DNA from: a virus
Taxonomy: Duplodnaviria > Heunggongvirae > Uroviricota > Caudoviricetes
Length of the DNA: 36,140 bases
IMG/VR virus record: IMGVR_UViG_2703718873_000026
Strand: one strand, 5' to 3'
Shown: positions 8,441-25,996 of the stretch, piece by piece
Numbering within the stretch: position 1 is the first letter of the stretch
How the letters are laid out: every line of letters begins with the position of its first letter
Notes under the pieces: model-generated
The model's database searches: none
What the model was told of the DNA's origin: nothing
What the model saw: only the letters and a program-made list of their open reading frames with translations
Position numbers and translations under genes: made by a program

Positions 8441-8904
8441 CAGATAAGCTCCACTGTGCAGTGCGGCGCATCCTGCACCCGGCTGATGGCCCAGCGGGCG
8501 TCACGCCACAAATCACCGCTTGCTTCCGCCAGTTCCTCGCCCCGCTTCACACCGGACGCCGTGGCGTCATAGTCCTGGTAACGTTCGTTGAGCATGGCGC
8601 GTGCCCAGCAGTAAACCGCGTTGAAATAGTGCTGAATGCGCTCACTTTTGCTGTCCAGCTGTTCCGCCGGAACCTCTGCCAGCGAGGCATACCCCAGCAT
8701 CTGCTGGCGTCTGCGAAACTCATACAGCTCTGCGTTGACCTCCGAAATTGCCGACAGCGCAACCTGCTTTAAACGCGGCTGCGTCACCGTGCCGTCAGTG
8801 CGCATCACGCTGCGAAACTCCGACAGGTCCACATCAGGCCAGAACGGCGTATTCCTGATGATTTCCGCCTGTTCCGGTGCCTGTTCTGGCGCAACAAACT
8901 TCAT
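8440..8904 (-). CDS. L: head completion/stabilisation protein, P2 gpL-like
   Basis: ATG at 8902-8904 with AGGAG upstream; ..FWPD.DL...R...RLDGTVT.PRL...YA.LAEVPA..L.. pattern. ORF track start 8967 is a GTG extension. Confidence 0.75.
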   Translation of the reverse strand: MKFVAPEQAPEQAEIIRNTPFWPDVDLSEFRSVMRTDGTVTQPRLKQVALSAISEVNAELYEFRRRQQMLGYASLAEVPAEQLDSKSERIQHYFNAVYCWARAMLNERYQDYDATASGVKRGEELAEASGDLWRDARWAISRVQDAPHCTVELI

Positions 8905-8999
8905 GCTGCTTTCTCCTGAAATAGAGGGCGGTGGACGGGGTTTTGATGTGGCAGTGCCTTTCGCCACCCCGTGCCGCCCGTGTGCGGGGGCACGTTCTG

Positions 9000-9650
9000 T
9001 CAGCGGCTGTCATTGCGCAGTCTGCGCTCCAGCTGCTGTTTGTCTTTTTTCACGCCACAGCGAGGATCGAGCTGTAACGCATGGTTGAGATGATTAAGGG
9101 CGGAAGCCGGGTTGCTTTCACTCAGGACAGCGCCAATCGCTTTATGCAGACGCGCCCGTGACTGGTCCGGCATATCCAGACCGTCTGTCAGCTCCAGCGT
9201 CTGCAGCAACAGGTCGGCATCAAAGCCGGTGGCGGCAAGCATTGCGCTCTGGGCTGCATCTGCCATTTCCTCTGCCAGCACGGTCTGCACGTTGCGGTTA
9301 CCCAGCGGCATCACCCAGCCATGACGCAGGGCATGACGCCCGATCTCCAGCGCCCCGGCATAATCTCCGGCATCAATGCGCCACAGCATCACGTACATCA
9401 GCACGTCATCCTGTTGAGCGCCTCCGGCAGCCAGAACGCCCTCCGCCCAGGCGGCATATTTCGGCAGCAGCTCCACCTTGATTTCCGCTTTTTTGACCGT
9501 GGACTGAACGCCCTTGAGACGGCGGCGGTCTTCCGCCAGTTGCAGCAGCATCAGGTCATAGCCCGACGCGTGGCGAACACTACCACCCTCGCGAGCGGCC
9601 TGTTCAGCCTGAACGCGCAGGCGATGCTGCCGTGCGGGACTCAGGCTCAT
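9000..9650 (-). CDS. M: terminase endonuclease (small) subunit, P2 gpM-like
   Basis: 216 aa; sits between L and the major capsid gene as in P2. Confidence 0.75.
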   Translation of the reverse strand: MSLSPARQHRLRVQAEQAAREGGSVRHASGYDLMLLQLAEDRRRLKGVQSTVKKAEIKVELLPKYAAWAEGVLAAGGAQQDDVLMYVMLWRIDAGDYAGALEIGRHALRHGWVMPLGNRNVQTVLAEEMADAAQSAMLAATGFDADLLLQTLELTDGLDMPDQSRARLHKAIGAVLSESNPASALNHLNHALQLDPRCGVKKDKQQLERRLRNDSR

Positions 9651-9653
9651 GAA

Positions 9654-10712
9654 TTACGCTCCGGTTTCTGCTGCGGCGGCGCTGAAGTCACCAATCTGGA
9701 TGTTTTCCACCAGTGCAGCGCAGCGATAGTCCTCAACCACATAGGCTTCGTTAACGGATTCAAAATTTTCAATCCGGTCACGTTTCGGGTTGTCGATAAC
9801 TGAACGGCGGCGGGTATCTTCCTGCCAGTAGATGGACAGGTTATCCAGACGGGTGATCAACAGCGCATTCGGCGGGAAGAACGGCGCACGCACCGCCTGC
9901 AGGCCACCCATGCGTTTCTGACTGATGATCATATCGGCAGCCAGTTTTTCACTGTTTTCCTGCTCTTTGTTGACCAGCGGGAAATACTTGTCAGACAGCA
10001 GTTCACGCCCGCAAATCACCACCAGATCGTCATCGTCCTGGTAGACAACGTCGATAAGCTCATTGACGGCATCCATCACCACGGCGTCCAGGTTGGCATA
10101 TTCGCCACCTTTACCGACTTTCACCGCACGCGGTGTGGTTTCACCGCCCGTGGTGCTGCTGCCCATGACGTGATCCGGTGCATCCTCACGGATTTTCTGT
10201 AACCAGCCTTTGTTCACATCCTGCAGCAGCGGGTTTTCGCTACGGTTGGAGGTTTTCGCACGCTTCACGCCGTTAAAGCCGATCATGATGCGGTCCAGTG
10301 CCTGACGTTTCACGATGGCGTCACGGATACGCACCTGGAAATCCTGAAACTTCGCCCACAGGTCCAGCTTCGCGTAGGTCAGTACCGTGTCAAAGTTGGT
10401 CTGCTCGCATTTGTATTCCACATCGACCATCAGCGTAGGATCGACAGGTTCACGCTCTTTCGCGGTGGTGTCAGTGGTTCCGGCAATGGTGCTGCCAACA
10501 CCCAACCCCAGCAGCTGACCGGACTGCTCAGTCACTGGCGTGACGTTAATCAGCGTCAGGAAAGCGGCGGACTGCTGGATCTGGTCTTCCAGCGTCTGCT
10601 GTACAGACGGCTCCACGGTGAACTTGCTGGACAGTTCTTCAACTGCCACACCGTTCAGACGCGCCAGCTGCTGCAGGTAAGCGTTAAAAGCAAATCGGGT
10701 ATTCTTCTTCAT
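9654..10712 (-). CDS. N: major capsid protein, P2 gpN-like
   Basis: 352 aa; MKKNTRFAFNAYLQQLARLNGV.. colinear with P2 N. Confidence 0.9.
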   Translation of the reverse strand: MKKNTRFAFNAYLQQLARLNGVAVEELSSKFTVEPSVQQTLEDQIQQSAAFLTLINVTPVTEQSGQLLGLGVGSTIAGTTDTTAKEREPVDPTLMVDVEYKCEQTNFDTVLTYAKLDLWAKFQDFQVRIRDAIVKRQALDRIMIGFNGVKRAKTSNRSENPLLQDVNKGWLQKIREDAPDHVMGSSTTGGETTPRAVKVGKGGEYANLDAVVMDAVNELIDVVYQDDDDLVVICGRELLSDKYFPLVNKEQENSEKLAADMIISQKRMGGLQAVRAPFFPPNALLITRLDNLSIYWQEDTRRRSVIDNPKRDRIENFESVNEAYVVEDYRCAALVENIQIGDFSAAAAETGA

Positions 10713-10728
10713 CGGGTTTTGTGCTCCA

Positions 10729-11562
10729 TCAGCAATTGGTCAGAGTGTCAGCGGGGGCGTTACCGCCTGTTGCACGCTGGCGGTAGTCCTGGCGGCAGTC
10801 TTCATGACTCAGCTTGTCCACCAGTTCGTTAAAGGCGGTTTGCTGTGCCTGCAGGGCAGTCTCCAGCTCAGACAGGCGTTCTTCCTGCTCAGACAGGGAT
10901 TTTTCGGTGCGTGCGCTCAGGTTCTGCTGCTCAGTGGCGACCAGCTCCACGGCCTTATGCACATCAGAGAACCGGGCGTCATCGGACTGCTCTTTTTTGG
11001 TAAACAGCGCCGTGACACGGGCAAACAGGGACGGTTTGTCGTCCTGGATTTCTTCCAGTTCGATCACCGTTTCCTCTGCAGCGGTAAAGAGATTGGCAGG
11101 ATTCTGCTTGCGGTTTGCCAGTGGGTTATGGGCTGCACTGGCGCTGAATGTCAGCATTTCAGTGCCCAGACTGGCAGGGTCATCAGTGGCTGCCAGGCCG
11201 ACCAGGTAGGCTTTGCCCGTATCAGCGAACTTCGGGCTGACTTCCATAGAGGTGAATAATTTCTGGCCTTTTTTCACCAGCTCCACCAGGGACTCCGTTG
11301 GCTCAACGTCGGCATACAGCGCCATCTTGCCTGCCAGCGGACCTTCCATGATTTCTTCAGCAAACAGCGCCGTCACCTTGCCGTAGCGGTTAAAGGTGCT
11401 GTCCGGCAGATAAGACTTGATGTGCTCAAGGTTAATCAGCGCGGTATACACCGCCGGGTTGTAGCTGGCTGCCATCTGTTCCAGCCATTCACGCTGGATT
11501 TCGCGTCCGTCGGTGGTGGCACCTTCCACCCCGATGCGAAAACGCTTTGCTTTCACTGTCAT
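10729..11562 (-). CDS. O: capsid scaffolding protein, P2 gpO-like
   Basis: 277 aa; ..FRIGVEG.T.DGR.I....EQMA..NLEH.. and C-terminal ..ATGGNA...LTNC as in P2 O. Confidence 0.85.
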   Translation of the reverse strand: MTVKAKRFRIGVEGATTDGREIQREWLEQMAASYNPAVYTALINLEHIKSYLPDSTFNRYGKVTALFAEEIMEGPLAGKMALYADVEPTESLVELVKKGQKLFTSMEVSPKFADTGKAYLVGLAATDDPASLGTEMLTFSASAAHNPLANRKQNPANLFTAAEETVIELEEIQDDKPSLFARVTALFTKKEQSDDARFSDVHKAVELVATEQQNLSARTEKSLSEQEERLSELETALQAQQTAFNELVDKLSHEDCRQDYRQRATGGNAPADTLTNC

Positions 11563-11640
11563 GAGCCGTGCTCCGTTAGAAAAAACTTACTGGAGCCTTA
11601 TGGTTGCGGTGATGGGGGCAGTGAAACAATGCGCGGTATT

Positions 11641-11658
11641 TGTACCGACAACCACACA
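11641..11658. promoter_or_regulatory. late-promoter activator dyad TGT-N12-ACA in the divergent O/P intergenic region
   Basis: TGTACCGACAACCACACA between the divergent O and P starts, where P2 has late promoters PO/PP. Confidence 0.45.
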
Positions 11659-11704
11659 AACCGCAGGCGGGGAAAGCCGTCATTCAAGGCTGTAGGTTTG
11701 TGCC

Positions 11705-13471
11705 ATGAACACCACACTGACACCCGCAGATCTCGATCCCCGTCGGCAGGCCATGCTGCTGTACTTTCAGGGATACCGCGTAGCCCGCATTGCTGAAATG
11801 CTGGGCGAGAAAGTTGCAACCGTTCACAGCTGGAAAAAACGCGACAAGTGGGGTGACTATGGGCCGCTGGATCAGATGCAGCTCACCACCGCCGCACGCT
11901 ACTGCCAGCTCATTATGAAGGAGCACAAAGAAGGGAAAGATTTCAAAGAGATTGACCTGCTGGCGCGCCAGTCTGAGCGCCACGCGCGGATCGGCAAGTT
12001 TAACAATGGCGGCAACGAAGCCGACTTAAACCCTAACGTCGCCAACCGCAATAAAGGCCCACGCCGTCAGCCGGAAAAGAATGTTTTCACCGATGAGCAG
12101 ATTGAGAAGCTGGAAGAAATCTTCCATTCCTCCATGTTCAACTACCAGCGCCACTGGTGGGAAGCCGGAAAAACCAACCGCATCCGCAACCTGCTGAAGT
12201 CACGCCAGATCGGCGCGACCTTCTATTTTGCCCGTGAAGCCCTGATTGACGCCCTGCTTACCGGACGTAACCAGATTTTCCTTTCTGCCAGTAAGGCTCA
12301 GGCCCACGTCTTTAAACAATACATCATCGACTTCGCCAAAGAAGTCGAGGTGGAGCTAAAAGGCGATCCGATGGTGCTTCCTAACGGAGCCACGCTTTAC
12401 TTCCTCGGCACCAATGCCCGCACGGCCCAGAGTTATCACGGCAACCTGTATCTGGATGAATATTTCTGGATACCGAAATTCCAGGAGCTGCGCAAAGTGG
12501 CTTCCGGGATGGCTATTCACAAAAAATGGCGACAAACCTATTTTTCCACGCCATCCAGCCTGACCCACAGTGCTTATCCGTTCTGGTCCGGTGCGCTGTT
12601 CAACCGTGGACGCAACAAAGCTGACAAGGTGGACATCGACCTGTCCCACAGCAATCTGGCCCCCGGCCTGCTGTGCGCAGACGGGCAATACCGCCAGATA
12701 GTCACCGTGGAAGATGCGGTGCGCGGCGGCTGTAACCTGTTCGACCTCGACCAGCTACGCATGGAGTACAGCCCGGACGAATACCAGAACCTGCTGATGT
12801 GCGAGTTCGTGGACGATCTCGCGTCCGTGTTCCCGCTCAGCGAACTGCAGGCGTGCATGGTGGACAGCTGGGAAGTCTGGACCGACTTTCATGCACTGGC
12901 CCTGCGCCCGTTTGGCTGGCGCGAAGTGTGGATCGGTTATGACCCGGCAAAAGGTACGCAGAACGGCGACAGTGCCGGATGCGTGGTGGTGGCTCCGCCA
13001 GCCGTGCCGGGTGGTAAGTTCCGCATTCTTGAGCGTCACCAGTGGCGCGGGATGGACTTCCGCGCCCAGGCTGACGCCATCAAAAAACTCACCGAACAGT
13101 ACAACGTGACCTATATCGGTATCGACTCAACCGGCGTTGGTCACGGGGTTTATGAGAACGTGAAAGCGTTCTTTCCTGCCGTCCGGGAGTTTGTCTACAA
13201 CCCCAATGTTAAAAACGCCCTGGTACTCAAGGCCTACGACATTATCAGCCACCGCCGTCTGGAGTTTGACGCCGGGCACACCGACATTGCGCAGTCATTC
13301 ATGGCAATCCGTCGCGCCACCACCGCCAGCGGCAACCGCCCGACCTATGAAGCCAGCCGCAGCGAAGAAGCCAGCCACGCCGATCTGGCCTGGGCAACGA
13401 TGCACGCACTGTTTAACGAACCGCTGCAGGGCGAATCCGCCAATACCAGCAATATTGTGGAGATTTTTTGA
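11705..13471 (+). CDS. P: terminase ATPase (large) subunit, P2 gpP-like
   Basis: 588 aa; length and position match P2 P. Confidence 0.9.
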   Translation: MNTTLTPADLDPRRQAMLLYFQGYRVARIAEMLGEKVATVHSWKKRDKWGDYGPLDQMQLTTAARYCQLIMKEHKEGKDFKEIDLLARQSERHARIGKFNNGGNEADLNPNVANRNKGPRRQPEKNVFTDEQIEKLEEIFHSSMFNYQRHWWEAGKTNRIRNLLKSRQIGATFYFAREALIDALLTGRNQIFLSASKAQAHVFKQYIIDFAKEVEVELKGDPMVLPNGATLYFLGTNARTAQSYHGNLYLDEYFWIPKFQELRKVASGMAIHKKWRQTYFSTPSSLTHSAYPFWSGALFNRGRNKADKVDIDLSHSNLAPGLLCADGQYRQIVTVEDAVRGGCNLFDLDQLRMEYSPDEYQNLLMCEFVDDLASVFPLSELQACMVDSWEVWTDFHALALRPFGWREVWIGYDPAKGTQNGDSAGCVVVAPPAVPGGKFRILERHQWRGMDFRAQADAIKKLTEQYNVTYIGIDSTGVGHGVYENVKAFFPAVREFVYNPNVKNALVLKAYDIISHRRLEFDAGHTDIAQSFMAIRRATTASGNRPTYEASRSEEASHADLAWATMHALFNEPLQGESANTSNIVEIF

Positions 13472-14496
13472 TGGGAAAGAGTAAGAAAAACCGCGCTGCG
13501 GCGACGAATCAGCTCAAGCATAAAAGCCAGACTTCAGCCGAAGCATTCAGCTTTGGCGATCCCGTTCCTGTTCTGGACCGCCGTGAACTGCTGGACTATG
13601 TGGAATGCGTACAGATGGACCGCTGGTATGAGCCGCCCGTCAGCTTTGACGGACTGGCACGAACCTTCCGCGCTGCCGTGCATCACAGCTCACCGATTGC
13701 AGTAAAATGCAACATTCTGACCAGTACCTACATCCCTCACCCGCTGCTCAGCCAGCAGGCTTTTTCGCGTTTTGTACAGGACTATCTGGTTTTTGGTAAC
13801 GCCTACCTGGAAAAACGCACGAACCGCTTCGGAGAGGTCATCGCTCTTGAGCCTGCGCTGGCAAAATACACCCGACGCGGGTTAGACCTGGATACCTACT
13901 GGTTTGTGCAATACGGTATGACAACCCAGCCGTATCAGTTCACGAAAGGCAGCATCTTTCATCTGTTGGAACCGGACATCAACCAGGAGATCTACGGCCT
14001 GCCCGGTTATCTTTCTGCCATTCCGTCAGCTCTGCTCAACGAGTCCGCCACGCTGTTCCGCCGCAAGTATTACATTAACGGCAGTCATGCAGGCTTCATC
14101 ATGTACATGACCGATGCTGCGCAGAACCAGGAGGATGTGAACAACCTCCGCAATGCGATGAAAAGCGCCAAAGGACCAGGTAACTTCCGCAATCTGTTTA
14201 TGTACTCGCCTAACGGCAAAAAGGACGGACTTCAGATCATCCCATTGTCAGAAGTCGCGGCGAAGGATGAGTTTCTGAATATCAAAAATGTCAGCCGCGA
14301 TGACATGATGGCAGCGCATCGTGTGCCACCGCAAATGATGGGGATTATGCCGAATAATGTTGGGGGGTTTGGGGATGTGGAAAAAGCGAGTTTAGTGTTT
14401 GTGAGGAACGAATTAATACCCTTACAGAAAAGGATGCAGGAATTAAATAAATGGCTTGAAGATAATATATTACAATTCAAACCATATAAATTTTAA
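13471..14496 (+). CDS. Q: portal (capsid) protein, P2 gpQ-like, with a divergent AT-rich C-terminal ~20 codons
   Basis: ..SAEAFSFG.P...DRR..LDY..WYEPP.SF.GLAR..HHSS..NILTST.IPHP.. and ..GPGNFRNLFMY.PNGKKDGLQ.IPLSEVAAKDEFLNIKNVSRDD.MAAHRVPPQ.MGIMPNN.GGFGDVEKA..VFVRNELIPLQ.. colinear with P2 Q. ATG overlaps the P stop; the ORF track adds one TTG codon (13468). Confidence 0.9.
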   Translation: MGKSKKNRAAATNQLKHKSQTSAEAFSFGDPVPVLDRRELLDYVECVQMDRWYEPPVSFDGLARTFRAAVHHSSPIAVKCNILTSTYIPHPLLSQQAFSRFVQDYLVFGNAYLEKRTNRFGEVIALEPALAKYTRRGLDLDTYWFVQYGMTTQPYQFTKGSIFHLLEPDINQEIYGLPGYLSAIPSALLNESATLFRRKYYINGSHAGFIMYMTDAAQNQEDVNNLRNAMKSAKGPGNFRNLFMYSPNGKKDGLQIIPLSEVAAKDEFLNIKNVSRDDMMAAHRVPPQMMGIMPNNVGGFGDVEKASLVFVRNELIPLQKRMQELNKWLEDNILQFKPYKF

Positions 14497-14505
14497 CGAA
14501 AAATC

Positions 14506-14532
14506 AGCCTTAGCGTTCATAACGTTAGGGCT
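14506..14532. terminator. bidirectional hairpin terminator between convergent Q and retron RT
   Basis: 12-bp stem AGCCTTAGCGTT / AACGTTAGGGCT (two G-U pairs), 3-nt loop, A-run upstream (T-run on the minus strand) and T-rich tail downstream. Confidence 0.55.
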
Positions 14533-14537
14533 GTTCA

Positions 14538-16484
<1,947 letters not shown>

Positions 16485-16528
16485 TCAACTTTCTGTTTTC
16501 CAGAAGTATTTTGGCTATTTTCGGTGAT

Positions 16529-16558
16529 AGCGCGCGCTCGTATCCCCGCCACGCCTGC
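16529..16558. other. cos (cohesive end site) of P2/186 type
   Basis: Minus strand reads GGCGTGGCGGGGATACGAGCGCGCGCT. From memory P2 cos is GGCGAGGCGGGGAAAGCAC followed by TGCGCGCT and the 186 end starts GGCGTGGCGGGGA. Located beyond the 3' end of Q, as in P2/186. Confidence 0.5.
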
Positions 16559-16574
16559 CCGCTTTATGCAGTGG

Positions 16575-16685
16575 TTTTCATGCACATGCATGACATGAGC
16601 AAAAGCCCGCCAGTTCTGGCGGATCTGAGCAAAGACGATCCTCAATCGATCATGCGATTTCATGCAGCATAGTCATGCACTGTCA
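16575..16685. repeat. cluster of CATGC(A/G) repeats flanking cos (candidate cosB / terminase-binding elements)
   Basis: At least five copies within ~110 bp (..TTCATGCACATGCATGACATGAGC.. and ..ATCATGCGATTTCATGCAGCATAGTCATGCACTG..); the same hexamer lies in the retron a1/a2 repeats. Confidence 0.35.
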
Positions 16686-16934
16686 AGGAAGTGAAAATCC
16701 GTATCTGAATGGCCACTTGAAAAACGGATCATACGGGTTTACAAAGATGAATGTTCGCTGTGAACGGGAAGCGGAAGTTAACTTTCAGATAACATAATCC
16801 ATATGCGCGAGAACCTCTAAAATAGAATGGGACACCTAAGCGGGGTACTTACAACGATTCTTTCCATATTCACAGTTAACACTCTGTTTGGCGTATTTTT
16901 ATTCAAATAGCAAACACCAATAAAAGGAGTTTCC

Positions 16935-17270
16935 ATGAACAATATTCCCCCTATACCACAGTTAGGAATTTATGTCTCAAAAATCGATCCCACCCTACGT
17001 ATCACTGTAACCGATGTTGATATTGTTGATGGTGAGGATGATTCTCCTGATGATGAATTGTTTTATTTAGTCCACTGGATCGAGGGGGAAGATGAAAGTG
17101 ATATGACAGCAATGGGATTTGAGCTAGACCCAGTAGAGTGGCAGGCTTTCGTTGAATCTGAGCAATTAGTGTTTGAGCGTGATCCGTACATGGATTCAAT
17201 CCCCGAAAATTCAAACTTGGCAAAGATTCGGGATTTTCTCATGAAGACTAAACAGAATGATCATTCGTAA
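16935..17270 (+). CDS. hypothetical acidic protein (111 aa, rich in D/E)
   Basis: ATG with AAGGAG about 7 nt upstream; opposite strand to the Tum/A genes; between cos and the tum module. No family recognised. Confidence 0.55.
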   Translation: MNNIPPIPQLGIYVSKIDPTLRITVTDVDIVDGEDDSPDDELFYLVHWIEGEDESDMTAMGFELDPVEWQAFVESEQLVFERDPYMDSIPENSNLAKIRDFLMKTKQNDHS

Positions 17271-17424
17271 GTGTAAGCATCCATCAGGAAAATGGTTTTG
17301 TAAGTGAATCATCAACTTTTAGAGAGTCTCAGACACTCCCACTTCTGCTTCTGACACAAAGCGGACGATCACTTATCAAAATAACCGCCCACCTTACGCC
17401 TTATTTCACTCATTGCCCAAACTA

Positions 17425-17454
17425 GCCCCCATCAGAATGAATCCTCCTGGGGGC
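17425..17454. terminator. GC-rich hairpin between convergent genes (possible terminator)
   Basis: GCCCCCA ..16 nt.. TGGGGGC between the end of the 16935..17270 ORF and the end of the DinI-like gene; no clear T-tract. Confidence 0.3.
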
Positions 17455-17462
17455 AACATTTC

Positions 17463-17696
17463 TTAATGCAGCCAGCTGTCGTCCTCCCACACCTTCTGCA
17501 TAATTTTCATCACTTGTTTTCTTTCTTCATCCAGTTGCAGTCCGGTTAGTTCCACACCGTTAGAGCTACCTTTGCGAATGCGAATTACCGTTTTGGGATA
17601 CAGGGGGCGCAGATTGCGGTAAAGCTCGGATTCAAGTGCGTCCAAGGTAGACTGGCTAATCTTCTGCTCTTTATCGATCATTATTTCAATGCGCAT
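17463..17696 (-). CDS. DinI-like protein (Tum C-terminal-domain-like antirepressor candidate)
   Basis: From ATG 17694-17696 with GAGGTG upstream: MRIEIMIDKEQK..LDALESELYRNL..VIRIRKG..GL..DEERKQVMKIMQKVWEDDSW, same pattern as E. coli DinI. ORF track extends to 17768 in a frame overlapping the upstream ORF. Confidence 0.7.
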   Translation of the reverse strand: MRIEIMIDKEQKISQSTLDALESELYRNLRPLYPKTVIRIRKGSSNGVELTGLQLDEERKQVMKIMQKVWEDDSWLH

Positions 17697-17706
17697 AAAA
17701 GTCACC

Positions 17707-17895
17707 TCAGCTGATGACATCCATTGAGCGGTTGTATTCGTGGCTTCTGATTTTTGCCATGAGTTCATCAGTCAATTCAGAAACCCACTGCAGAGCCAGC
17801 CCCTTCTCTTCATCACTACACTCACTAGCCGCTACAAGCTTAAGAAAAAAATCAATGCGCTGGAGCTTCAAAGACTCCAAAAAATAGTCCTGCAT
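17707..17895 (-). CDS. small protein upstream of the DinI-like gene (possible N-terminal part of a split Tum-like antirepressor)
   Basis: 62-aa ORF starting ~45 bp downstream of a LexA box, ending just upstream of and in a different frame from the DinI-like ORF. Confidence 0.5.
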   Translation of the reverse strand: MQDYFLESLKLQRIDFFLKLVAASECSDEEKGLALQWVSELTDELMAKIRSHEYNRSMDVIS

Positions 17896-17935
17896 CTTTC
17901 CTCCTATGACACCAAAACAATACTGTATACATAAC

Positions 17936-17955
17936 CACTGTTTATATTTACAGTA
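17936..17955. promoter_or_regulatory. LexA (SOS) box
   Basis: CACTGTTTATATTTACAGTA matches CTGT-N8-ACAG, immediately upstream of the minus-strand tum-like module, as expected for the SOS-controlled tum promoter of 186. Confidence 0.7.
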
Positions 17956-18047
17956 TATAATAATCTTACTGATGTAAAACGTTTTTTTACGTTCATCGGC
18001 CTGATATGCCTGGTATTATTAAGAGCACGAATTGTTAACCCGCGTAA

Positions 18048-20462
18048 TTAATACAGGTTCCGCCACTTATCATCTTCCTTCAGACGCTGGTTCCGATAGA
18101 AGATACGCAGGCCTGCTCCTGACGGAATACTGCCGCCGCGAAGGAGCAAATCGACTTCTTTCTCGCTGCCATCAAATCCCCTGGACTTCAGTTCATAGAC
18201 GAGCTGCTGTCGCTGATGGTCTGTAATTCGCTGTTTGTAGTCTTTACGCCGTTTCGGTTTCACCTGGCGTAACCTTGCAGCCAGTTCCCGGCGCTCTTTT
18301 TTGCTCATACTGTGCAGGTAATCGTGCAACTCCTTGTCATTCATACGGGTAATATCCGTTCTGGAGTCCCCATCAGCTGATTTGTCTTTCCCTTGTTGGT
18401 TCAAATTTTCAGCAAGGGGACAGTTATTGCCACGAGTCCAAGGGGCGCAAGCGCCCTGGTCGGCTACCGCCTCCTGAACGTCAACGGCCTTACGAACCAT
18501 TTTCCACTTCACTGCATGAGTGCAGATCTTGCCCTCTGCAATGGGTGACCAGATGCCATAAATACGAATGCCGTGATCGCCATAGGCGGTCGGCTCTTCG
18601 TTGATTTCATAAGCGGTTCTGATAAGGTGATATTTACGGGGAACCAGTACGCCGCCCTGCTTCATGATGTAGGTGGCAAAACAACCAGCATCAGCAGCAG
18701 CCAGGATGGCATCAAGGCGCGGGTCATCCAGTATCGGCGCACCTGCTTTTTTGTCACCCTGTTGCCTTGCCGCCTGACCAGCCAGCAAGCGAAGTTCACG
18801 GTAAGCCTGACGTCCCGGAATACCAAAGAAGCGGAACTGCTGAACACGATGCAGAGACGCCCAGGCATTAACGTATTCGGCGTTATCACGCAGGGATTTA
18901 CCCGTTTCCTTGCTGATCTCGCCAGCCAGACCACGCCCGTCAATGTTCTTACTGATGTATTTCGCGATGTAGCTTGTCGGTGTTCCTTTGCGCGGGTTAA
19001 TCAGCTCAGACTTAAAGCGTGGCCCCGTGTTGTTGCCCAGCTCCTCGCGGTCTACACGGATGGCAAACTTACGCAGTAATGCAGTGATGGCGCGGCGGTC
19101 TTTTTTACGCATGAAGCACATGAGATGCCAGTGCACAGTACCGTCATGGTGCGGCTCAGCCACCCGCACGCCATACCAGCGCAACCCGGTTTTGTGCATT
19201 GCCTTACGAAATGCAGCAAACATGCCGACCATATAATCGCTGCTTTGTCTTACCGTCGCATTTGTCCAGGTCGGGTTGGGTCTGCCGTTGTTGAGCGTGG
19301 AATGGAAACGTGACGGACAGGTGATAGTGTAGAAAACGGCGCAGTCACCGCGCATTTCCGCGATAAGCTCCAGACCTTTAACACAGGCCATCATCTCATT
19401 GCGGCGATGCGCAGGGTTGCTGCTGCTGGCGTTTACCACATCCTCCATGTCCAGCGTGTCGCCGTCTTCGTTCACCAGTTCATGAGAACGGAAAAACTCC
19501 AGCGACTTACGGCGCTGCTCACGTTTATGCATCACGGCTTCATAGCTGACATAGGGAGATGCTTTTTTGCTGACCAGGCAGACAGCACGCAACTGCTCTT
19601 CCCGCCATTCGCAACGCATCTTCCATAATTTCCGATACCACCAGTCGGCGCACAACATACGCGCCAGCGAACCCGGAATGAGTTCATAGGGCACGGGTTT
19701 ACGGCGGTTTCTTTTCCGACGGAGTTGCTCAAACGCAGGTGGGATGACATCCAGACGCAGGGTTTCCGCCGCCACCTTTTCCCATGTCTTGCGGATTTCT
19801 TCTGGCTTAACGTCATCGGTGGCATACAAATCGCCACAAGCTGCATCAAGGCACATGCTCATATGCGCAGCTACCAGGGTGGACAGGCGTTTCACCTGAT
19901 CCTGACTCATTTCAGGCAGAATCAGCAGGCCCTCCAGCCCTTGATGGCTTGCCATAAAACGGAAAGAAGCAGACAGCTGACTGTCACGTACACAATCCAG
20001 TCGCTCCAGACATGGCTTAATCGTCTCACGCAAATAGCGGGAATAAGCCTTTGGCCTGCCCAGGCTGCTGAAGTATTCGATACGTTGCATCAGCGGCTTG
20101 CTAATATGGGTGGGCTGGGCGCTGACGTCCGCCAGAATGACCATGTCCGGGTTAAAACGCTGCTGTTCATGCGCTAGCTTTGCCCGGCTAATGAGCTTAT
20201 CCTGCTCCATTTCGCGCTGGACAGGATCACGAGATTCATTAAAGAAATAACGCTCCCAGACCTGCTCACTCAGTGCATCGCGGCGCAGCTGTTCCTGCTC
20301 ATTATCGGCAGCGTACAGAGTGATCAGGTTTAAAAGTGCAGACTCCGGAGCAACTTCCGCCGGGTCCAGATAAGGGTTAATGGCCTTTTTCGGGCCGTTC
20401 CATGAAAATGCTGCAGCGGCCTCGTTAAAGCCGCTAGAGTTGCTCATATCGTCATGACTCAT
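18048..20462 (-). CDS. A: replication initiation protein (rolling-circle endonuclease), P2 gpA-like
   Basis: 804 aa; metal-binding ..[12 protein letters not shown].. and Tyr-containing region ..[10 protein letters not shown]..; start ATG overlaps the dam stop (ATGA). Confidence 0.85.
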
Positions 20463-21316
20463 ACACGCACCTCGTACACAGCAGAACTATCTACGCCACA
20501 CGAAGGATCAAATCCCACCCAGCAGCGCGCCCCGGAAACAGCAATGATTTCTGTTGCAGATTTACTCTCGCCAGCCGACACGCCGATGCTGCGTTTTGCC
20601 TTGATGTAGTGGTGAGTGAAATTTCGATACAGCGAACGGATCAGGGATGTGTCACTGTTAGAAACAATGACTGGATGACCTTCTGATGATCGATATTCAA
20701 GAACAGATGCCAGGTGATACTGGTCATCTTCAGTGAAGCCGTCAGTGTGATAGCCGGAAAACGTACCGTCATAAGGCGGATCGCAATACACCACATCCCC
20801 CACCTGCAGCATCGCCAGCGTTTCATCAAAGCTGGCGCAGATAAACGTTGCTCGCTGGGCTTTCTCTGCAAATGCGCGAATTTCTTTTTCAGGGAAATAC
20901 GGATTTTTATAATTACCGTATGGAATGTTGAAATGCCCGCTCTTGTTATAACGACATAACCCACGGTAACCATGACGATTGAGATACAGGAAATATACCG
21001 CTTTCATGAAATCAGTAATTTCAGTGGAGTAATTAAACTCCTGCCTTATGTTGTAATAAGCCACCTCCCTGTTTGCTTCCTCAAATAAAGCTCTGGCACG
21101 AGATATAAACGCCTCGCAATCAGCAGCAACCTTTTTATAGAGGTTGATTAAATCAGGATTAATATCCGCAACAAGATAGCTGGGGTAATCCGTCTCCATC
21201 ATCACAGCACAGGAACCCGCGAAAGGTTCAACCAGTCGCGGGCCAGCAGGAAGATGTTTTTTCAGTTCGGACATAATGGCAGTTTTATTACCCGCCCATT
21301 TCAGGATGGTGCTCAT
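20459..21316 (-). CDS. dam: DNA adenine methyltransferase (Dam-like, N6-adenine)
   Basis: From internal [14 protein letters not shown]..; motifs ..[10 protein letters not shown].. (AdoMet binding) and DPPY. ORF track extends 24 codons upstream. Confidence 0.85.
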
Positions 21317-21615
21317 ACAGCACCTCCTGCAATAACATATCCTAAAGCTTCTAATGGGGTTAATGGGCGAATTGATAGCATCACCCATTGTTCTGAAACT
21401 GCCATGACGTCATTAACCGGAAGCACATGAGAGATAACAGCGGCCCATTCCCTACCCGTAAATACGCCATGCTTCCATTCGCAAAGAGAAAGAACATCAC
21501 CAACTTTATAGCCACGATCGTCTTTACGAAGTTCAGCCGTCTTTTGACCTGCAACCACAGCGTTGAAATACTTAGGTGCAATTTTTAATTGATGGATACG
21601 CACTGCCCTTGTCAT
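21313..21615 (-). CDS. small hypothetical protein (about 100 aa; DUF3850/ASCH-like by N-terminal pattern)
   Basis: From internal [45 protein letters not shown]..; family assignment from memory only. ORF track extends to 21675. Confidence 0.55.
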
Positions 21616-21839
21616 ACAGCACCTCCGTTGTAATGTTTGCCTTTCAGCTCTGCGATTTCCTGGCAGGTAATGCAAAGCTGCACTCCCGGAATGGCACGGC
21701 GGCGTGCTGGCGGAATTGGCGCTTCACACTCAATGCAAAGCACGCGAGACACGCCCGGTGTTTTGGCACGGGCAGCACGGATATGGCGCTGGCGTTCTTC
21801 TTCAACGCGCTGCTGTACGAGATCCATTGCATCAGCCAT
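21612..21839 (-). CDS. TraR/DksA-family C4 zinc-finger protein
   Basis: 75 aa with CIECEAPIP ...18 aa... CITCQ. Confidence 0.7.
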
Positions 21840-22078
21840 TAGTGGATCTCCTGCGCTTCGTTCTGGATTGCTTCAGCAGTCACACGCAGCAGTTCTGCCG
21901 CTTCCACGTGGTTTAGCTGACGGGATGAGATATGACACGCCAGGCTATCAAGGCGAGCTGCCATTGCTTCAGCCCTTGCCCGGCGTTCTTCCAGACGAGC
22001 CTCTGTCAGTAAAATATTAAGCCCTGCATCATCCGGTCCGGTTTTAGTCGTGAGGATTTCAATATTACGCATAATCAA
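21839..22078 (-). CDS. hypothetical early-region protein
   Basis: 79-aa ORF, start overlaps next gene (ATGA-type); between cII-side genes and A. Confidence 0.5.
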   Translation of the reverse strand: MIMRNIEILTTKTGPDDAGLNILLTEARLEERRARAEAMAARLDSLACHISSRQLNHVEAAELLRVTAEAIQNEAQEIH

Positions 22079-22139
22079 TTCTCCTGAATTTAGATAAAGG
22101 GATGCCCGGCGGGTTTACGCCATTAATTTCATTAGTTGG

Positions 22140-22481
22140 TTAATTCGGCATGGTTAGCCGTCTGGGAAATAAGCTCACCACTGCACGAAAATGATTCATT
22201 GCTTTAATCAACTCCCGCTTTTCGTCAGTGGTCAGCTCATTGATGCTGATGCTATGACGTTCAGCCGGAATTTTTGCCATAAAGAATATGGCTGCCAGTG
22301 CTCGTTTATTTTGTTCGTTATTGATATCCCGTGGATCACGCATATCTTTAATAAACCGCTCAAGCTCTGACTCAATATTCAGGCCAAAAACTTTCGCCCT
22401 TAATTCCGCTATGTGATTAAGTCCATTCAGGCGTTCACCGGGGCTTAATGGAACAGTAGCCGCAGCGCCTTCAATAGCCAT
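22140..22481 (-). CDS. hypothetical early-region protein (position of 186 fil/dhr-type genes)
   Basis: 113-aa ORF, ATG with GGGGGA upstream; overlaps the upstream gene by ~37 nt. Confidence 0.5.
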   Translation of the reverse strand: MAIEGAAATVPLSPGERLNGLNHIAELRAKVFGLNIESELERFIKDMRDPRDINNEQNKRALAAIFFMAKIPAERHSISINELTTDEKRELIKAMNHFRAVVSLFPRRLTMPN

Positions 22482-22645
22482 TTGTTCCCCCGTTTTTTCG
22501 TAGATAGTTCTGCCAGCAATTCATCTTGTGAACGGCACGGATGCCAGCGTTTACCATCCTCACCCATGATCCAGCCGTGACCGTAGTGCATTGCCGGGCT
22601 TTGTTTTACCAGCAGCGATGCAAATGATGGTTCTTTCGTCAGCAT
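22445..22645 (-). CDS. hypothetical small early protein
   Basis: ATG at 22643-22645 with GAGGTG upstream, 8 nt after the cII stop; ORF track extends to 22675. Confidence 0.5.
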   Translation of the reverse strand: MLTKEPSFASLLVKQSPAMHYGHGWIMGEDGKRWHPCRSQDELLAELSTKKRGNKWLLKALRLLFH

Positions 22646-22652
22646 AAGCACC

Positions 22653-23162
22653 TCACAGCAAACCGAATGAAGCACCGAGGCCAGTCACGGTATCAACTGC
22701 ACTCGCCATCGCAGGATTAGCCTGTAAACGGGCCTGCAATGAAACAGCAGCCAGCGCCATCAGTCGTGTTACAGAGTTAATGCTGCTGATAGCATCACGA
22801 CGACCGGCACTAGTTTTTACATCACCAGATACCGCACCTGCTGCAACACGTCCAATCTCTGCAGTTGCGCTCATGACGTAATGCGGCAGTTTCTCTTTTG
22901 CAACCTCATTAATCGGTACACATGGCAGGCAGTGAATCTGTGCCAGAAAACCATCTACCAGCGTTGAATCTTCTGTCAGATCGGTAAGCAGCCAGATTTC
23001 TGGTGCGGTTAATAAATGAGGTTGAGATGGGTTCAGCTTGTTCCGCAGAATCTGCACATTCATGCCAGCACGTTCTGCCAGTTGCACCAGATTGTGGCGC
23101 AGTGCGAATGCACGACAGGCTTCATCAAAATGTGGATGTTTGGAAACTTGGTAATCAAACAT
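22653..23162 (-). CDS. cII: CII-like lysogeny establishment activator (phage 186 CII homolog)
   Basis: From ATG 23160-23162: [60 protein letters not shown], 169 aa, colinear with 186 CII (also 169 aa). ORF track adds 3 codons from a TTG. Confidence 0.85.
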
Positions 23163-23226
23163 GGTTTTCAACTCCGAACTTATCGCAAAATCGAACTCAG
23201 CGTCTTATTGCGAAAATAGACATCTA

Positions 23227-23403
23227 TTAAGCAGACAAAGCATCAACAGTCAGAGCAGCCAGGTTAATCATTACCTTTTCACGTTTTTTGTCTTTACGAA
23301 GACGATGACGAGGTAGTCGGCCATCAGCCAACATGTCGTTAATCGTATCAATAGAAAGGCCAGTCAGTTCGCTATAACGTTGGTTTGGGAGAAGGTTCGG
23401 CAT
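23227..23403 (-). CDS. apl: Apl/Cox-like excisionase/repressor with a chimeric N-terminus created at crossover site B
   Basis: ..[40 protein letters not shown].. resembles P2 Cox. Current ATG (23401-23403) and first ~8 codons (MPNLLPNQ) are encoded by site B plus tail-fibre cassette DNA. ORF track extends to 23508. Confidence 0.6.
23368..23393. other. invertase crossover-like site B: TTCGCTATAACG-TT-GGTTTGGGAGAA
   Basis: Right half identical to the inner half of site C; core TT versus AA at site A; lies exactly at the apl / tail-fibre-cassette junction. Confidence 0.55.
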
Positions 23404-24907: not shown

Positions 24908-25360
24908 TTACCGTCCAATGATTAATGCTGAGACGCTGGTATCTGAAGGAAAGGCTGCATTCAGTGGTTTGTCGACTTTGAACACAATCGTATTATTCCC
25001 CCTGACAGCGGCAAAAGAACAAACCGCAGTCGCGTATGAACCTGTAATATTACTGGATACACCACCATAAGCTGTTGTTGATACCAGAGGGATAACGCCC
25101 AGCACCTTATTAGGAAATACAAAGGGCAATGTGGCTGTGGCAATATAAGACTTATTAGAACCTGTAATGGCATAAGCATTATCAGTCATTCCATTCATCG
25201 CCACCGGGCCGCTTATACTTACAGTAACCATCTGAATGATTAGCCCGTCAGGTTGACGAATCACAAAATTTCCATTGCCACCAGTAACCGTCCAGAAAGA
25301 CATATCAGGGATTTGGTTTTCCCCGTTGCCCACATTCCGTTTTGCCGCTTCTCCCAAACC
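24908..25360 (-). CDS. tail fibre variable C-terminal cassette 2 (alternative receptor-binding segment)
   Basis: On the minus strand begins ..FINVGLGEAAKRNVGNGENQ.. at site C, in frame with the same G-L-G-E half-site codons. ORF track 24908..25402. Confidence 0.7.
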   Translation of the reverse strand, partial: GLGEAAKRNVGNGENQIPDMSFWTVTGGNGNFVIRQPDGLIIQMVTVSISGPVAMNGMTDNAYAITGSNKSYIATATLPFVFPNKVLGVIPLVSTTAYGGVSSNITGSYATAVCSFAAVRGNNTIVFKVDKPLNAAFPSDTSVSALIIGR

Positions 25361-25374
25361 AACGTTTATGAAAA
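25349..25374. other. invertase crossover-like site C: TTCTCCCAAACC-AA-CGTTTATGAAAA
   Basis: Inverted copy of site B (shared half GGTTTGGGAGAA, complementary core); about 55 bp upstream of the invertase gene. Confidence 0.55.
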
Positions 25375-25429: not shown

Positions 25430-25996
25430 ATGCTTATTGGCTATGTACGCGTGTCAACAAATGACCAGAACACCGATTTGCAACGTAATGCACTGAACTG
25501 CGCGGGATGTGAGCGGATTTTTGAGGATAAAATCAGTGGCACTAAGTCCGACAGACCGGGGCTTAAAAAACTGCTCAGGACACTATCGGCAGGAGACACT
25601 CTGGTTGTCTGGAAGCTGGACAGGTTGGGGCGCAGTATGCGGCATCTTGTTACGCTGATAGAAGAGTTGCGTCAGCGTGGCGTGAATTTCCGAAGCCTGA
25701 CTGACAGTATTGATACCAGCACCCCAATGGGCCGTTTCTTTTTTCATGTCATGGGGGCCCTGGCTGAAATGGAACGCGAACTGATAGTTGAACGTACCAT
25801 GGCAGGGCTGGCTGCAGCTCGTGCCAAAGGCAGAGTAGGTGGACGCCGTCCTAAGTTGACCACCGAACAGTGGGCACAGATTGGGCGTTTACTCGAGGCC
25901 GGAGAATCAAGACAGCGTATTGCACTGATTTTTGATGTAGGCGTTTCTACCATTTATAGAAAATTTCCGGCAAATAAGAGCAATGAATCCCCCTGA
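25430..25996 (+). CDS. pin: serine recombinase, DNA invertase of the Hin/Gin/Pin/Cin family
   Basis: From internal ATG: MLIGYVRVSTNDQNTDLQRNAL..GDTLVVWKLDRLGRSM..FRSLTDSIDTSTPMGRFFFHVMGALAEMERELI.ERT.AGLAAAR.KGR.GGR.PKLT.., near-colinear with E. coli e14 Pin. ORF track extends 59 codons upstream. Confidence 0.9.
   Translation: MLIGYVRVSTNDQNTDLQRNALNCAGCERIFEDKISGTKSDRPGLKKLLRTLSAGDTLVVWKLDRLGRSMRHLVTLIEELRQRGVNFRSLTDSIDTSTPMGRFFFHVMGALAEMERELIVERTMAGLAAARAKGRVGGRRPKLTTEQWAQIGRLLEAGESRQRIALIFDVGVSTIYRKFPANKSNESP

Follow-up and report, generated by a model that had tools for sequence, protein, structure and literature searches.

A predicted LexA-controlled, two-gene (tumA-tumB) form of the 186 Tum antirepressor module in a P2-like prophage

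The viral record IMGVR_UViG_2703718873_000026 (IMG/VR; 36,140 nucleotides (nt), the whole of which is referred to here as the window) contains a LexA box followed by two small open reading frames (ORFs) of 62 and 77 codons, the second of which encodes a DinI-like protein. This layout resembles that of the tum gene of phage 186, the product of which is a LexA-controlled antirepressor, except that Tum is a single protein. The locus therefore raises the question whether the module is naturally bicistronic, has been broken by a frameshift, or depends on programmed recoding, the three options left side by side by the first-pass annotation of this DNA, and whether the SOS response can still inactivate the CI repressor. 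The locus is very probably the SOS operon, in the bicistronic form tumA-tumB, of a P2-like prophage of the 186/Fels-2 type (phiR67-like, with a reverse transcriptase of the retron Ec67 type).

All genes of the tumA-tumB region are on the minus strand, and the features recorded by the first-pass annotation are present where it placed them. In the direction of transcription, the LexA operator (17955..17921) is followed by the 62-amino acid (aa) ORF (17895..17707; hereinafter tumA), which starts with the ATG at 17895 and ends with a TGA at 17709..17707, and then by the 77-aa DinI-family ORF (17696..17463; hereinafter tumB), the ATG of which, at 17696, is located 10 nt past the tumA stop with a frame offset of +1 relative to tumA. 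The two ORFs had been described as overlapping; this applies only to the mechanically called longest ORF of 101 aa that starts from an ATG at 17768, whereas the two genes preceded by Shine-Dalgarno (SD) sequences do not overlap. The module lies immediately downstream of gene A, in a phage with CI, CII and Apl of the 186 type rather than C and Cox of the P2 type. The CI protein of this element (1449..~2018, minus strand) contains the Pfam domains Phage_CI_repr and Phage_CI_C and is 33% identical to 186 CI; CII and Fil homologues are annotated in an identical region of E. coli.

The DinI-like nature of tumB, its different frame and its own SD (GAGGTG) are as originally described. The 77-aa protein matches the Pfam family DinI, PF06183, over profile positions 1-63 of 63 (E 6.6e-23; 81.3 bits compared with the gathering cut-off of 24.2), as well as the E. 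coli DinI structure 1GHH over residues 1-75 (E 2.7e-6), and is labelled "DinI-like family protein" by RefSeq/PGAP. It also matches residues 71-145 of 186 Tum (41% identity, E 3e-24). Tum itself, in agreement with the first-pass annotation, is one protein of 146 aa with a DinI-like C-terminal domain, and is encoded in one ORF, not in the two-ORF manner seen here. The 62-aa protein matches PHROG 698 (E 5.9e-38), and both this protein and 186 Tum, the latter via residues 1-61, match PHROGs 698, 8554 and 1993 colinearly. An alignment of 28 diverse relatives (32-74% identical) was drawn from a scan of 1.84 billion cluster representatives, and an hhalign comparison of the resulting family profile with 186 Tum aligns residues 5-44 to residues 5-44 with the probability of 94.5% (E 7.5e-8). 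The motif common to the TumA family and Tum consists of a hydrophobic helix and a cysteine at the turn, followed by xxLALxW/L-I/V-xEL. The two ORFs accordingly align with the N-terminal and C-terminal parts of Tum, respectively, and the 62-aa ORF is predicted, from these profile similarities, to encode an antirepressor homologous to the N-terminal part. TumA-like proteins are nearly always stand-alone and 50-75 aa long (483 clusters at 90% identity, 67 representatives at 50%); a single-sequence search of the same 1.84 billion cluster representatives retrieves short stand-alone relatives only and does not reach the fused Tum proteins.

The claim that a strong LexA box precedes tumA is borne out, with the amendment that this box is one of two overlapping sites, the second of which had been missed. 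A LexA position weight matrix (PWM), built from 17 E. coli operators, gives box 1 a score of 23.5 bits and box 2 a score of 16.4 bits, compared with an average of 11.7 (standard deviation 2.6, n=100) for the top-scoring site per shuffled window. In ten related phages, the two LexA boxes, the hexamer TTTACA and the ribosome-binding sites of both genes show little or no variation, whereas the surrounding non-coding DNA has diverged; the hexamer in particular is invariant across the 10 aligned relatives. Every tumA-like gene examined, including the distant ones, has a LexA box 15-40 nt upstream. The stretch 17955..17921 is best described as a predicted double LexA operator of the colicin type. 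In colicin genes, tight repression and late induction go together with a pair of overlapping LexA boxes; by analogy, in the lineage with the double operator, the antirepressor may be fired only after sustained damage. The putative promoter of the operon, TTTACA followed by 17 nt and TACTGT, is assigned by its likeness to the annotated 186 promoter p95 (TTCACA, 18 nt, TACTGT).

The only other strong LexA site in the 36 kb, and the highest-scoring one of the window (CACTGGTTATATATACAGTA, score 25), is located at 1083-1102. It falls in the 17-nt spacer between TTGACA and AAAAAT of a promoter-like site at 1078-1106 (minus strand); the integrase gene starts some 25 nt further downstream, at an ATG near 1051. 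This arrangement suggests an SOS-controlled int promoter at 1078-1106. Phage 813R9 has a variant box, TACTGGTTACATATACAGTT, at the equivalent int position; Fels-2 and 186 have none.

The nature of the junction between tumA and tumB becomes apparent from a comparison of ten modules, namely, those of Fels-2, 813R9, p13P477T, SEN8, SopEphi, 500465-1, two Klebsiella phages, Yersinia MLG42 and the window. In all of these, including phages at 78-83% DNA identity, tumA consists of 62 codons and tumB of 77, with the exception of 500465-1, the record of which contains single-base indels that are probably sequencing errors. The tumA stop codon varies among relatives between TGA, TAA and TAG, and the spacer between the genes measures 10, 11, 12 or 13 nt, so that frame offsets of +1, +2 and 0 all occur, while a purine-rich SD occupies the tumB SD position in all relatives despite the changes of the spacer. 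The ratio of non-synonymous to synonymous substitution rates (dN/dS) is 0.05-0.11 overall (0.06-0.11 for tumA and 0.05-0.09 for tumB); against the relatives at 78-83% DNA identity, with a synonymous divergence of 0.5-0.7, it amounts to 0.06-0.07 for tumA and 0.05-0.09 for tumB. Both genes are under purifying selection. At a coverage of at least 80%, the module is present in 1083 of the 5426 complete E. coli genomes (about 20%).

The possibility that a recent frameshift or nonsense mutation broke a fused, 186-type tum and left a decaying pair of pseudogenes could draw on the different frames of the two halves relative to 186 and on the rearrangement of this prophage elsewhere, but it is very improbable. 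The same 62- and 77-codon ORFs, with their own SDs and the low dN/dS, recur in Fels-2, SopEphi, SEN8, Yersinia MLG42 and the Klebsiella phages, and both are found in the 1083 E. coli genomes; stand-alone TumA-like proteins make up a diverse family, with 67 clusters at 50% identity; and a shifted reading of the 186 linker would be expected to align with the tail of the 62-aa protein, which is not observed. Programmed recoding at the junction, either a +1 frameshift or a stop read-through, that would add a fused Tum-like protein to the separate products, is hardly more than a theoretical option. It is suggested by the tumB frame, which is open for 24 codons upstream of the ATG and overlaps the end of tumA (the source of the 101-aa ORF), and by a local hairpin over the junction that masks the tumB SD. 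However, the 101-aa extension is not kept in relatives, where indels in the spacer shift the frame, and the hairpin is confined to the lineage of the window and Fels-2: across relatives, RNAalifold detects neither a conserved structure nor compensatory pairing at the junction, and no slippery motif at the junction is conserved in the aligned relatives. The junction therefore lacks the conserved frame relation, the slippery sequence and the stimulatory element of a recoding site; conserved frameshifting is excluded because spacers of 10-13 nt yield all three relative frames, three different stop codons are in use, and tumB has a conserved SD and ATG of its own. By the same lack of conserved structure or covariation, masking of the tumB ribosome-binding site by this hairpin (translational coupling or attenuation) was rejected as a general feature. 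Thus, among the three options of the first-pass annotation, the natural bicistron stands, whereas the frameshift mutation and recoding do not, given the preserved gene lengths, the selection on both genes and the variation of stops and spacers. Two independently translated cistrons are the selected state, which excludes a recent lesion and a conserved programmed frameshift.

Several observations weigh against the assignment of tumA as the antirepressor gene of an SOS operon. Pairwise BLASTP comparison of the 62-aa protein with 186 Tum detects no similarity, the link to the N-terminal part of Tum being a matter of profile methods, and the match of the family profile to PSP3 TumA is weak (E 0.004, probability 8.6%). 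The antirepressor activity of the upstream gene of PSP3 is a second-hand result (G. E. Christie, personal communication in Lemire et al. 2011, PMC3121763). The specificity of TumA for the CI of this element is an assumption, since nearly identical TumA proteins are paired with divergent repressors: the TumA proteins of the window, Fels-2 and 813R9 share 97-98% identity, whereas their CI proteins share only 38-56%, with the N-terminal helix-turn-helix (HTH) domain as the conserved part. With respect to regulation, the bare motif CTGT-N8-ACAG, which has its single match in the window at 17938-17953, is weak evidence by itself because 0.53 chance matches are expected per window (at least one occurs in 42 of the 100 shuffles), and a generic sigma-70 scan of 16800-18200 reports no promoter, the -10 element being weak.

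The negative pairwise result would also be compatible with the 62-aa ORF being an unrelated small SOS-induced protein, with the antirepressor function residing in the DinI-like protein or absent altogether, as would the lack of a Pfam family and of a solved relative (a PDB sequence search with the TumA family profile retrieves nothing) and the database label, which is merely "hypothetical protein". The AlphaFold2 model of the 62-aa protein is a two-helix hairpin (helices 2-23 and 28-61, pLDDT 88), a generic fold for which Foldseek finds in PDB only non-significant helical-hairpin matches; with the best E-value at 0.83, the fold comparison is uninformative on the function of TumA. This explanation is unlikely all the same. 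The dissimilarity to Tum, which would have spoken against the module in the eyes of the first-pass annotation, is seen in BLASTP but not in the profile comparison, where the homology to Tum residues 5-44 is colinear, and the genomic position is identical. In PSP3, the annotation and the personal communication cited above both assign ultraviolet (UV) induction to tumA. Furthermore, many P2-like prophages with a 186-type CI carry a tumA-like gene behind a LexA box and no dinI-like gene, which makes the small tumA-like gene the constant element. These distant tumA-like genes (35-40% identical) directly follow gpA in P2-like prophages with a CII (Phage_CP76) and a repressor of the Phage_CI_repr/Phage_CI_C type; next come an ogr gene, in convergent orientation, and the portal gene, with no dinI-like partner, and each of the loci, 9-12 kb in length, contains a single strong LexA box, at the usual distance upstream of the tumA-like gene. 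Phages of the ESSI-2 type are similar to these loci, and in Erwinia phage ENT90 the 186-type N-terminal part occurs by itself. The constant unit is thus a LexA box and a small helical protein beside a 186-type CI, which fits an antirepressor role, and DinI is an accessory, which can be absent, adjacent or fused. Related loci show four architectures: fused, split in frame, split out of frame, and antirepressor only.

Taken as an SOS operon of the tumA-tumB type, the locus is predicted to function as follows, with LexA binding and the contacts of TumA with CI and of TumB with RecA inferred from the work on 186, PSP3 and Fels-2. In the undamaged cell, LexA bound to the double operator would cover the -10 region and the start of the sigma-70 promoter downstream of gene A. 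Upon DNA damage, cleavage of LexA would release a single mRNA with two separately translated genes. TumA, the helical hairpin, would bind the 186-type CI and stop its binding to the operator, in the manner of 186 Tum, which binds CI and prevents operator binding (Shearwin 1998, as cited in PMC3121763), and TumB, as a member of the DinI family, would act on the RecA filament and thereby tune SOS induction. The pairing of nearly identical TumA with divergent CI suggests that TumA recognises the conserved N-terminal HTH domain of CI and may act across immunity types. The same observation hints at either a broad-specificity antirepressor or free reassortment of the SOS module among immunity types.

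Thus, the two-ORF layout represents neither a lesion nor a recoding site but the normal form in which the 186-type SOS antirepressor module is found, widespread and under selection, and the concern that the split might keep the SOS response from inactivating CI is not supported by the split as such. The annotation of tumA as a TumA-like antirepressor gene is justified; the label "hypothetical protein" persists in about a fifth of complete E. coli genomes.

The inducibility of this particular prophage appears to be set by something unrelated to the split, an inversion of 21 kb. The prophage lies between rcdA/ybjJ and ybjL, and positions 1-22700 are 99.99% identical to E. coli FHI_NMBU_11. The gene order of the prophage departs from the canonical one, with an abrupt switch from the start of apl to the 3' end of H (Table). 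In silico inversion of 2215..23379 yields the gene order of Fels-2 and P2, together with an in-frame apl of 67 aa and an in-frame H of 516 aa. The junctions (window 2201-2226 and 23368-23393) are hybrids of two sites that have been exchanged exactly at a 2-bp core: junction A, in the minus-strand reading, is TTCTCACATACC-TT-CGATTGTGACAT, and junction B is TTCGCTATAACG-TT-GGTTTGGGAGAA. These hybrids derive from the tail-fibre crossover site, on the one hand, and from a quasi-site within apl, on the other; at the equivalent place, Fels-2 H has TTCTCACATACC-TC-GGTTTAGGCGAA. E. coli N1420 has the reconstructed CI-apl-cII junction uninterrupted and at 100% identity, and 417 genomes have it at a coverage of at least 80%; the actual inverted junction is found in just four complete genomes, all other matches ending at the crossover. 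Both junctions are present in FHI_NMBU_11, and the invertase gene looks intact. An assembly artefact was considered as the cause and rejected, given that the junctions occur in four independent complete genomes and the breakpoints fall on the 2-bp core of the invertase site. To judge from these junction sequences, the inversion is invertase-mediated, between the tail-fibre crossover site and the apl quasi-site.

In the inverted copy, transcription from pR would enter the truncated apl and continue through the late genes in antisense orientation, the cII-to-A operon would be cut from its promoter, and H would be truncated. SOS induction of this prophage probably fails unless the segment flips back, even though TumA may still inactivate CI; such a block would therefore come from the inversion, which disconnects pR, and not from the tum split. 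An alternative, which has a low but not negligible chance of being correct, is that in this E. coli lineage the prophage is locked by the inversion and that its intact tumA-tumB operon, by way of a trans-acting, broad-specificity TumA, now acts solely to induce other 186-type prophages or to supply the host with a DinI-like modulator of SOS, or else that the inversion is a reversible switch of inducibility.

The invertase itself, of the Hin/Gin/Cin type with Resolvase and HTH_7 domains, is encoded at ~25430-25996 on the plus strand, next to a 2-kb invertible tail-fibre segment that contains two alternative fibre tips with their assembly genes and is bounded by a perfect 19-nt inverted repeat, AACGTTGGTTTGGGAGAAG, at 23376-23394 and 25348-25366.

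Table. Features of the SOS operon and of the inverted prophage region (window coordinates)
Feature	Coordinates	Strand	Basis or remark
Putative -35 hexamer TTTACA; the SOS-operon promoter would correspond to 186 p95	17973..17978	-	read from sequence
Putative -10 hexamer TACTGT, also the left arm of LexA box 1	17950..17955	-	analogy with annotated 186 p95; invariant in relatives
LexA box 1 (predicted), TACTGTAAATATAAACAGTG	17936..17955	-	PWM 23.5; conserved in relatives
LexA box 2 (predicted), CAGTGGTTATGTATACAGTA, overlapping box 1 by 5 nt	17921..17940	-	PWM 16.4; conserved in 10 relatives
SD AGGAGG of tumA	17900..17905	-	sequence; invariant in relatives
tumA-like gene (62 aa) for a predicted antirepressor; homologue of the N-terminal part of 186 Tum	17707..17895	-	ORF and profiles
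SD GAGGTG of tumB, overlapping the tumA stop TGA	17703..17708	-	sequence
tumB-like gene, 77 aa, DinI family, homologous to the C-terminal part of 186 Tum	17463..17696	-	Pfam match and identity to 186 Tum
G+C-rich hairpin 8 nt past the tumB stop, possibly a weak terminator; 186 t95a has the equivalent position	17425..17454	-	low confidence
int and CI	1-2105	-	gene order
pR-like promoter	2046-2074	+	gene order
First 17 codons of apl	2164-2214	+	split by inversion
Inverted block: 3' end of tail-fibre H, late genes, cos, retron reverse transcriptase, tumB, tumA, A ... cII	2215..23379	-	
Last 50 codons of apl	23379..23227	-	split by inversion
Variable tail-fibre segment, invertase, tail operon	after 23379	+	

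The upstream neighbour of the SOS operon is an 804-aa P2 gpA-like replication gene (20462..18048, minus strand), separated from it by an A+T-rich spacer that holds the promoter and operator. On the other side, the hairpin past tumB, with a 7-bp GCCCCCA/TGGGGGC stem in the RNA fold, a z-score of -1.15 and a poor T-tract, is the point at which the similarity to Fels-2 stops. A 111-aa acidic ORF at 16935-17270 on the plus strand converges on tumB; it has no Pfam family, is hypothetical in RefSeq, and occupies, on the opposite strand, the position of orf97 in 186 and Fels-2. The next gene after the operon encodes a 646-aa reverse transcriptase/endonuclease of the retron Ec67 family (14538-16478, minus strand; Pfam RVT_1 and the RefSeq name) at the cargo position that adjoins cos. 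Together with a Dam methylase (20459-21388), this gene makes the element resemble the phiR67 prophage. An Rfam search of 14000-18200 yields no match, and neither a retron msr/msd nor another known RNA is detected beside the module. A non-coding block of about 150 nt (16530-16681) retains 88-91% identity in Fels-2, 813R9 and p13P477T and flanks differing cargo: the retron reverse transcriptase here, a Hypoth_Ymh protein in 813R9 and STM2723.1 in Fels-2. Between CI and int, a 63-aa ORF (1242-1433, minus strand) with a signal-peptide-like N-terminus and several cysteines has no Pfam family and is hypothetical in RefSeq; it is a possible moron expressed in lysogeny.

The two-gene form is already known, from the literature and, since the deposition of the genome, from the annotation of PSP3; a literature search on tumA/tumB by name returned no relevant papers. 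For the operator, the closest parallel is in the colicin gene cea of ColE1. The 35-nt double operator (17955..17921) is identical in 29 of 35 positions to ColE1 5061-5095, a stretch that was verified in NC_001371, where it lies some 45 nt ahead of the cea start codon. Both operators consist of two 20-nt LexA boxes with a 5-nt overlap and a degenerate left arm in the second box (CAGTGG...). They differ in that the ColE1 boxes lie just downstream of the -10 element, whereas here box 1 seems to contain it, and the regulated genes are unrelated to tumA and tumB. At the level of logic, the Gifsy dinI-gfoA/gftA modules of Salmonella likewise combine a LexA-controlled dinI homologue with a small antirepressor that acts against a non-cleavable repressor (PMC3121763), but with the reverse order (dinI first), with other antirepressor and repressor families, and in lambdoid rather than P2-like phages.

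Among P2-like phages, 186, PSP3, Fels-2 and SopEphi owe their UV inducibility to tum (Lavigne et al. 2009, PMC2771037), and in Fels-2 and PSP3 tum is split in two (Lemire et al. 2011, PMC3121763). The Salmonella prophage Fels-2 (NC_010463) has the arrangement seen here: the DNA of the module is 96-97% identical over the promoter, the ORFs STM2728 and STM2726.1 and the junction, with the same 10-nt spacer and double LexA box, and TumA is 97-98% identical to STM2728. The annotation calls STM2728 "hypothetical" and STM2726.1 "DinI family, similar to TumB PSP3". In Salmonella, Fels-2 makes a lexA-null mutation lethal (Bunny 2002, as cited in PMC3121763). The differences are that the Fels-2 CI is 38% identical to the CI encoded here and that its tumB is followed by an orf97 homologue, STM2726, instead of the opposite-strand 111-aa ORF and the retron Ec67-type reverse transcriptase. 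PSP3 (NC_005340) shares the two cistrons after a LexA box downstream of gene A and a closely similar TumB, whereas its LexA box is single, its TumA is of the 186 sequence type, and its two genes are in the same frame, TAG plus 3 nt apart. The annotation of this phage describes tumA (60 aa) as "similar to 5' end 186 tum; UV induction of prophage" and tumB (77 aa) as "similar to dinI and 3' end of 186 tum".

With 186, the locus has in common a LexA box over the -10 element, a promoter downstream of gene A, an antirepressor N-terminal part and a DinI-like C-terminal part, and a 186-type CI as the target, which is a predicted one for the locus described here. In the 186 record, however, tum is one ORF of 146 aa behind p95, with a single LexA box that starts at the -10 element; the two parts are fused through a linker of about 25 residues and followed by orf97, and the similarity of the N-terminal part to TumA is visible with profiles only. 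The 186 tum gene nonetheless has annotated internal starts, the last of which, a GTG behind the sequence AAGGAGG, gives a protein of 76 aa whose first residue aligns with the first methionine of the 77-aa protein, and thus 186, too, makes a free DinI-like protein; the record refers to the truncated tum products as modulators of SOS induction. 186 Tum has been read as a fusion by Lemire et al. (2011, PMC3121763), and the two-gene module described here supports this view of Tum as a small antirepressor joined to a DinI-like protein.

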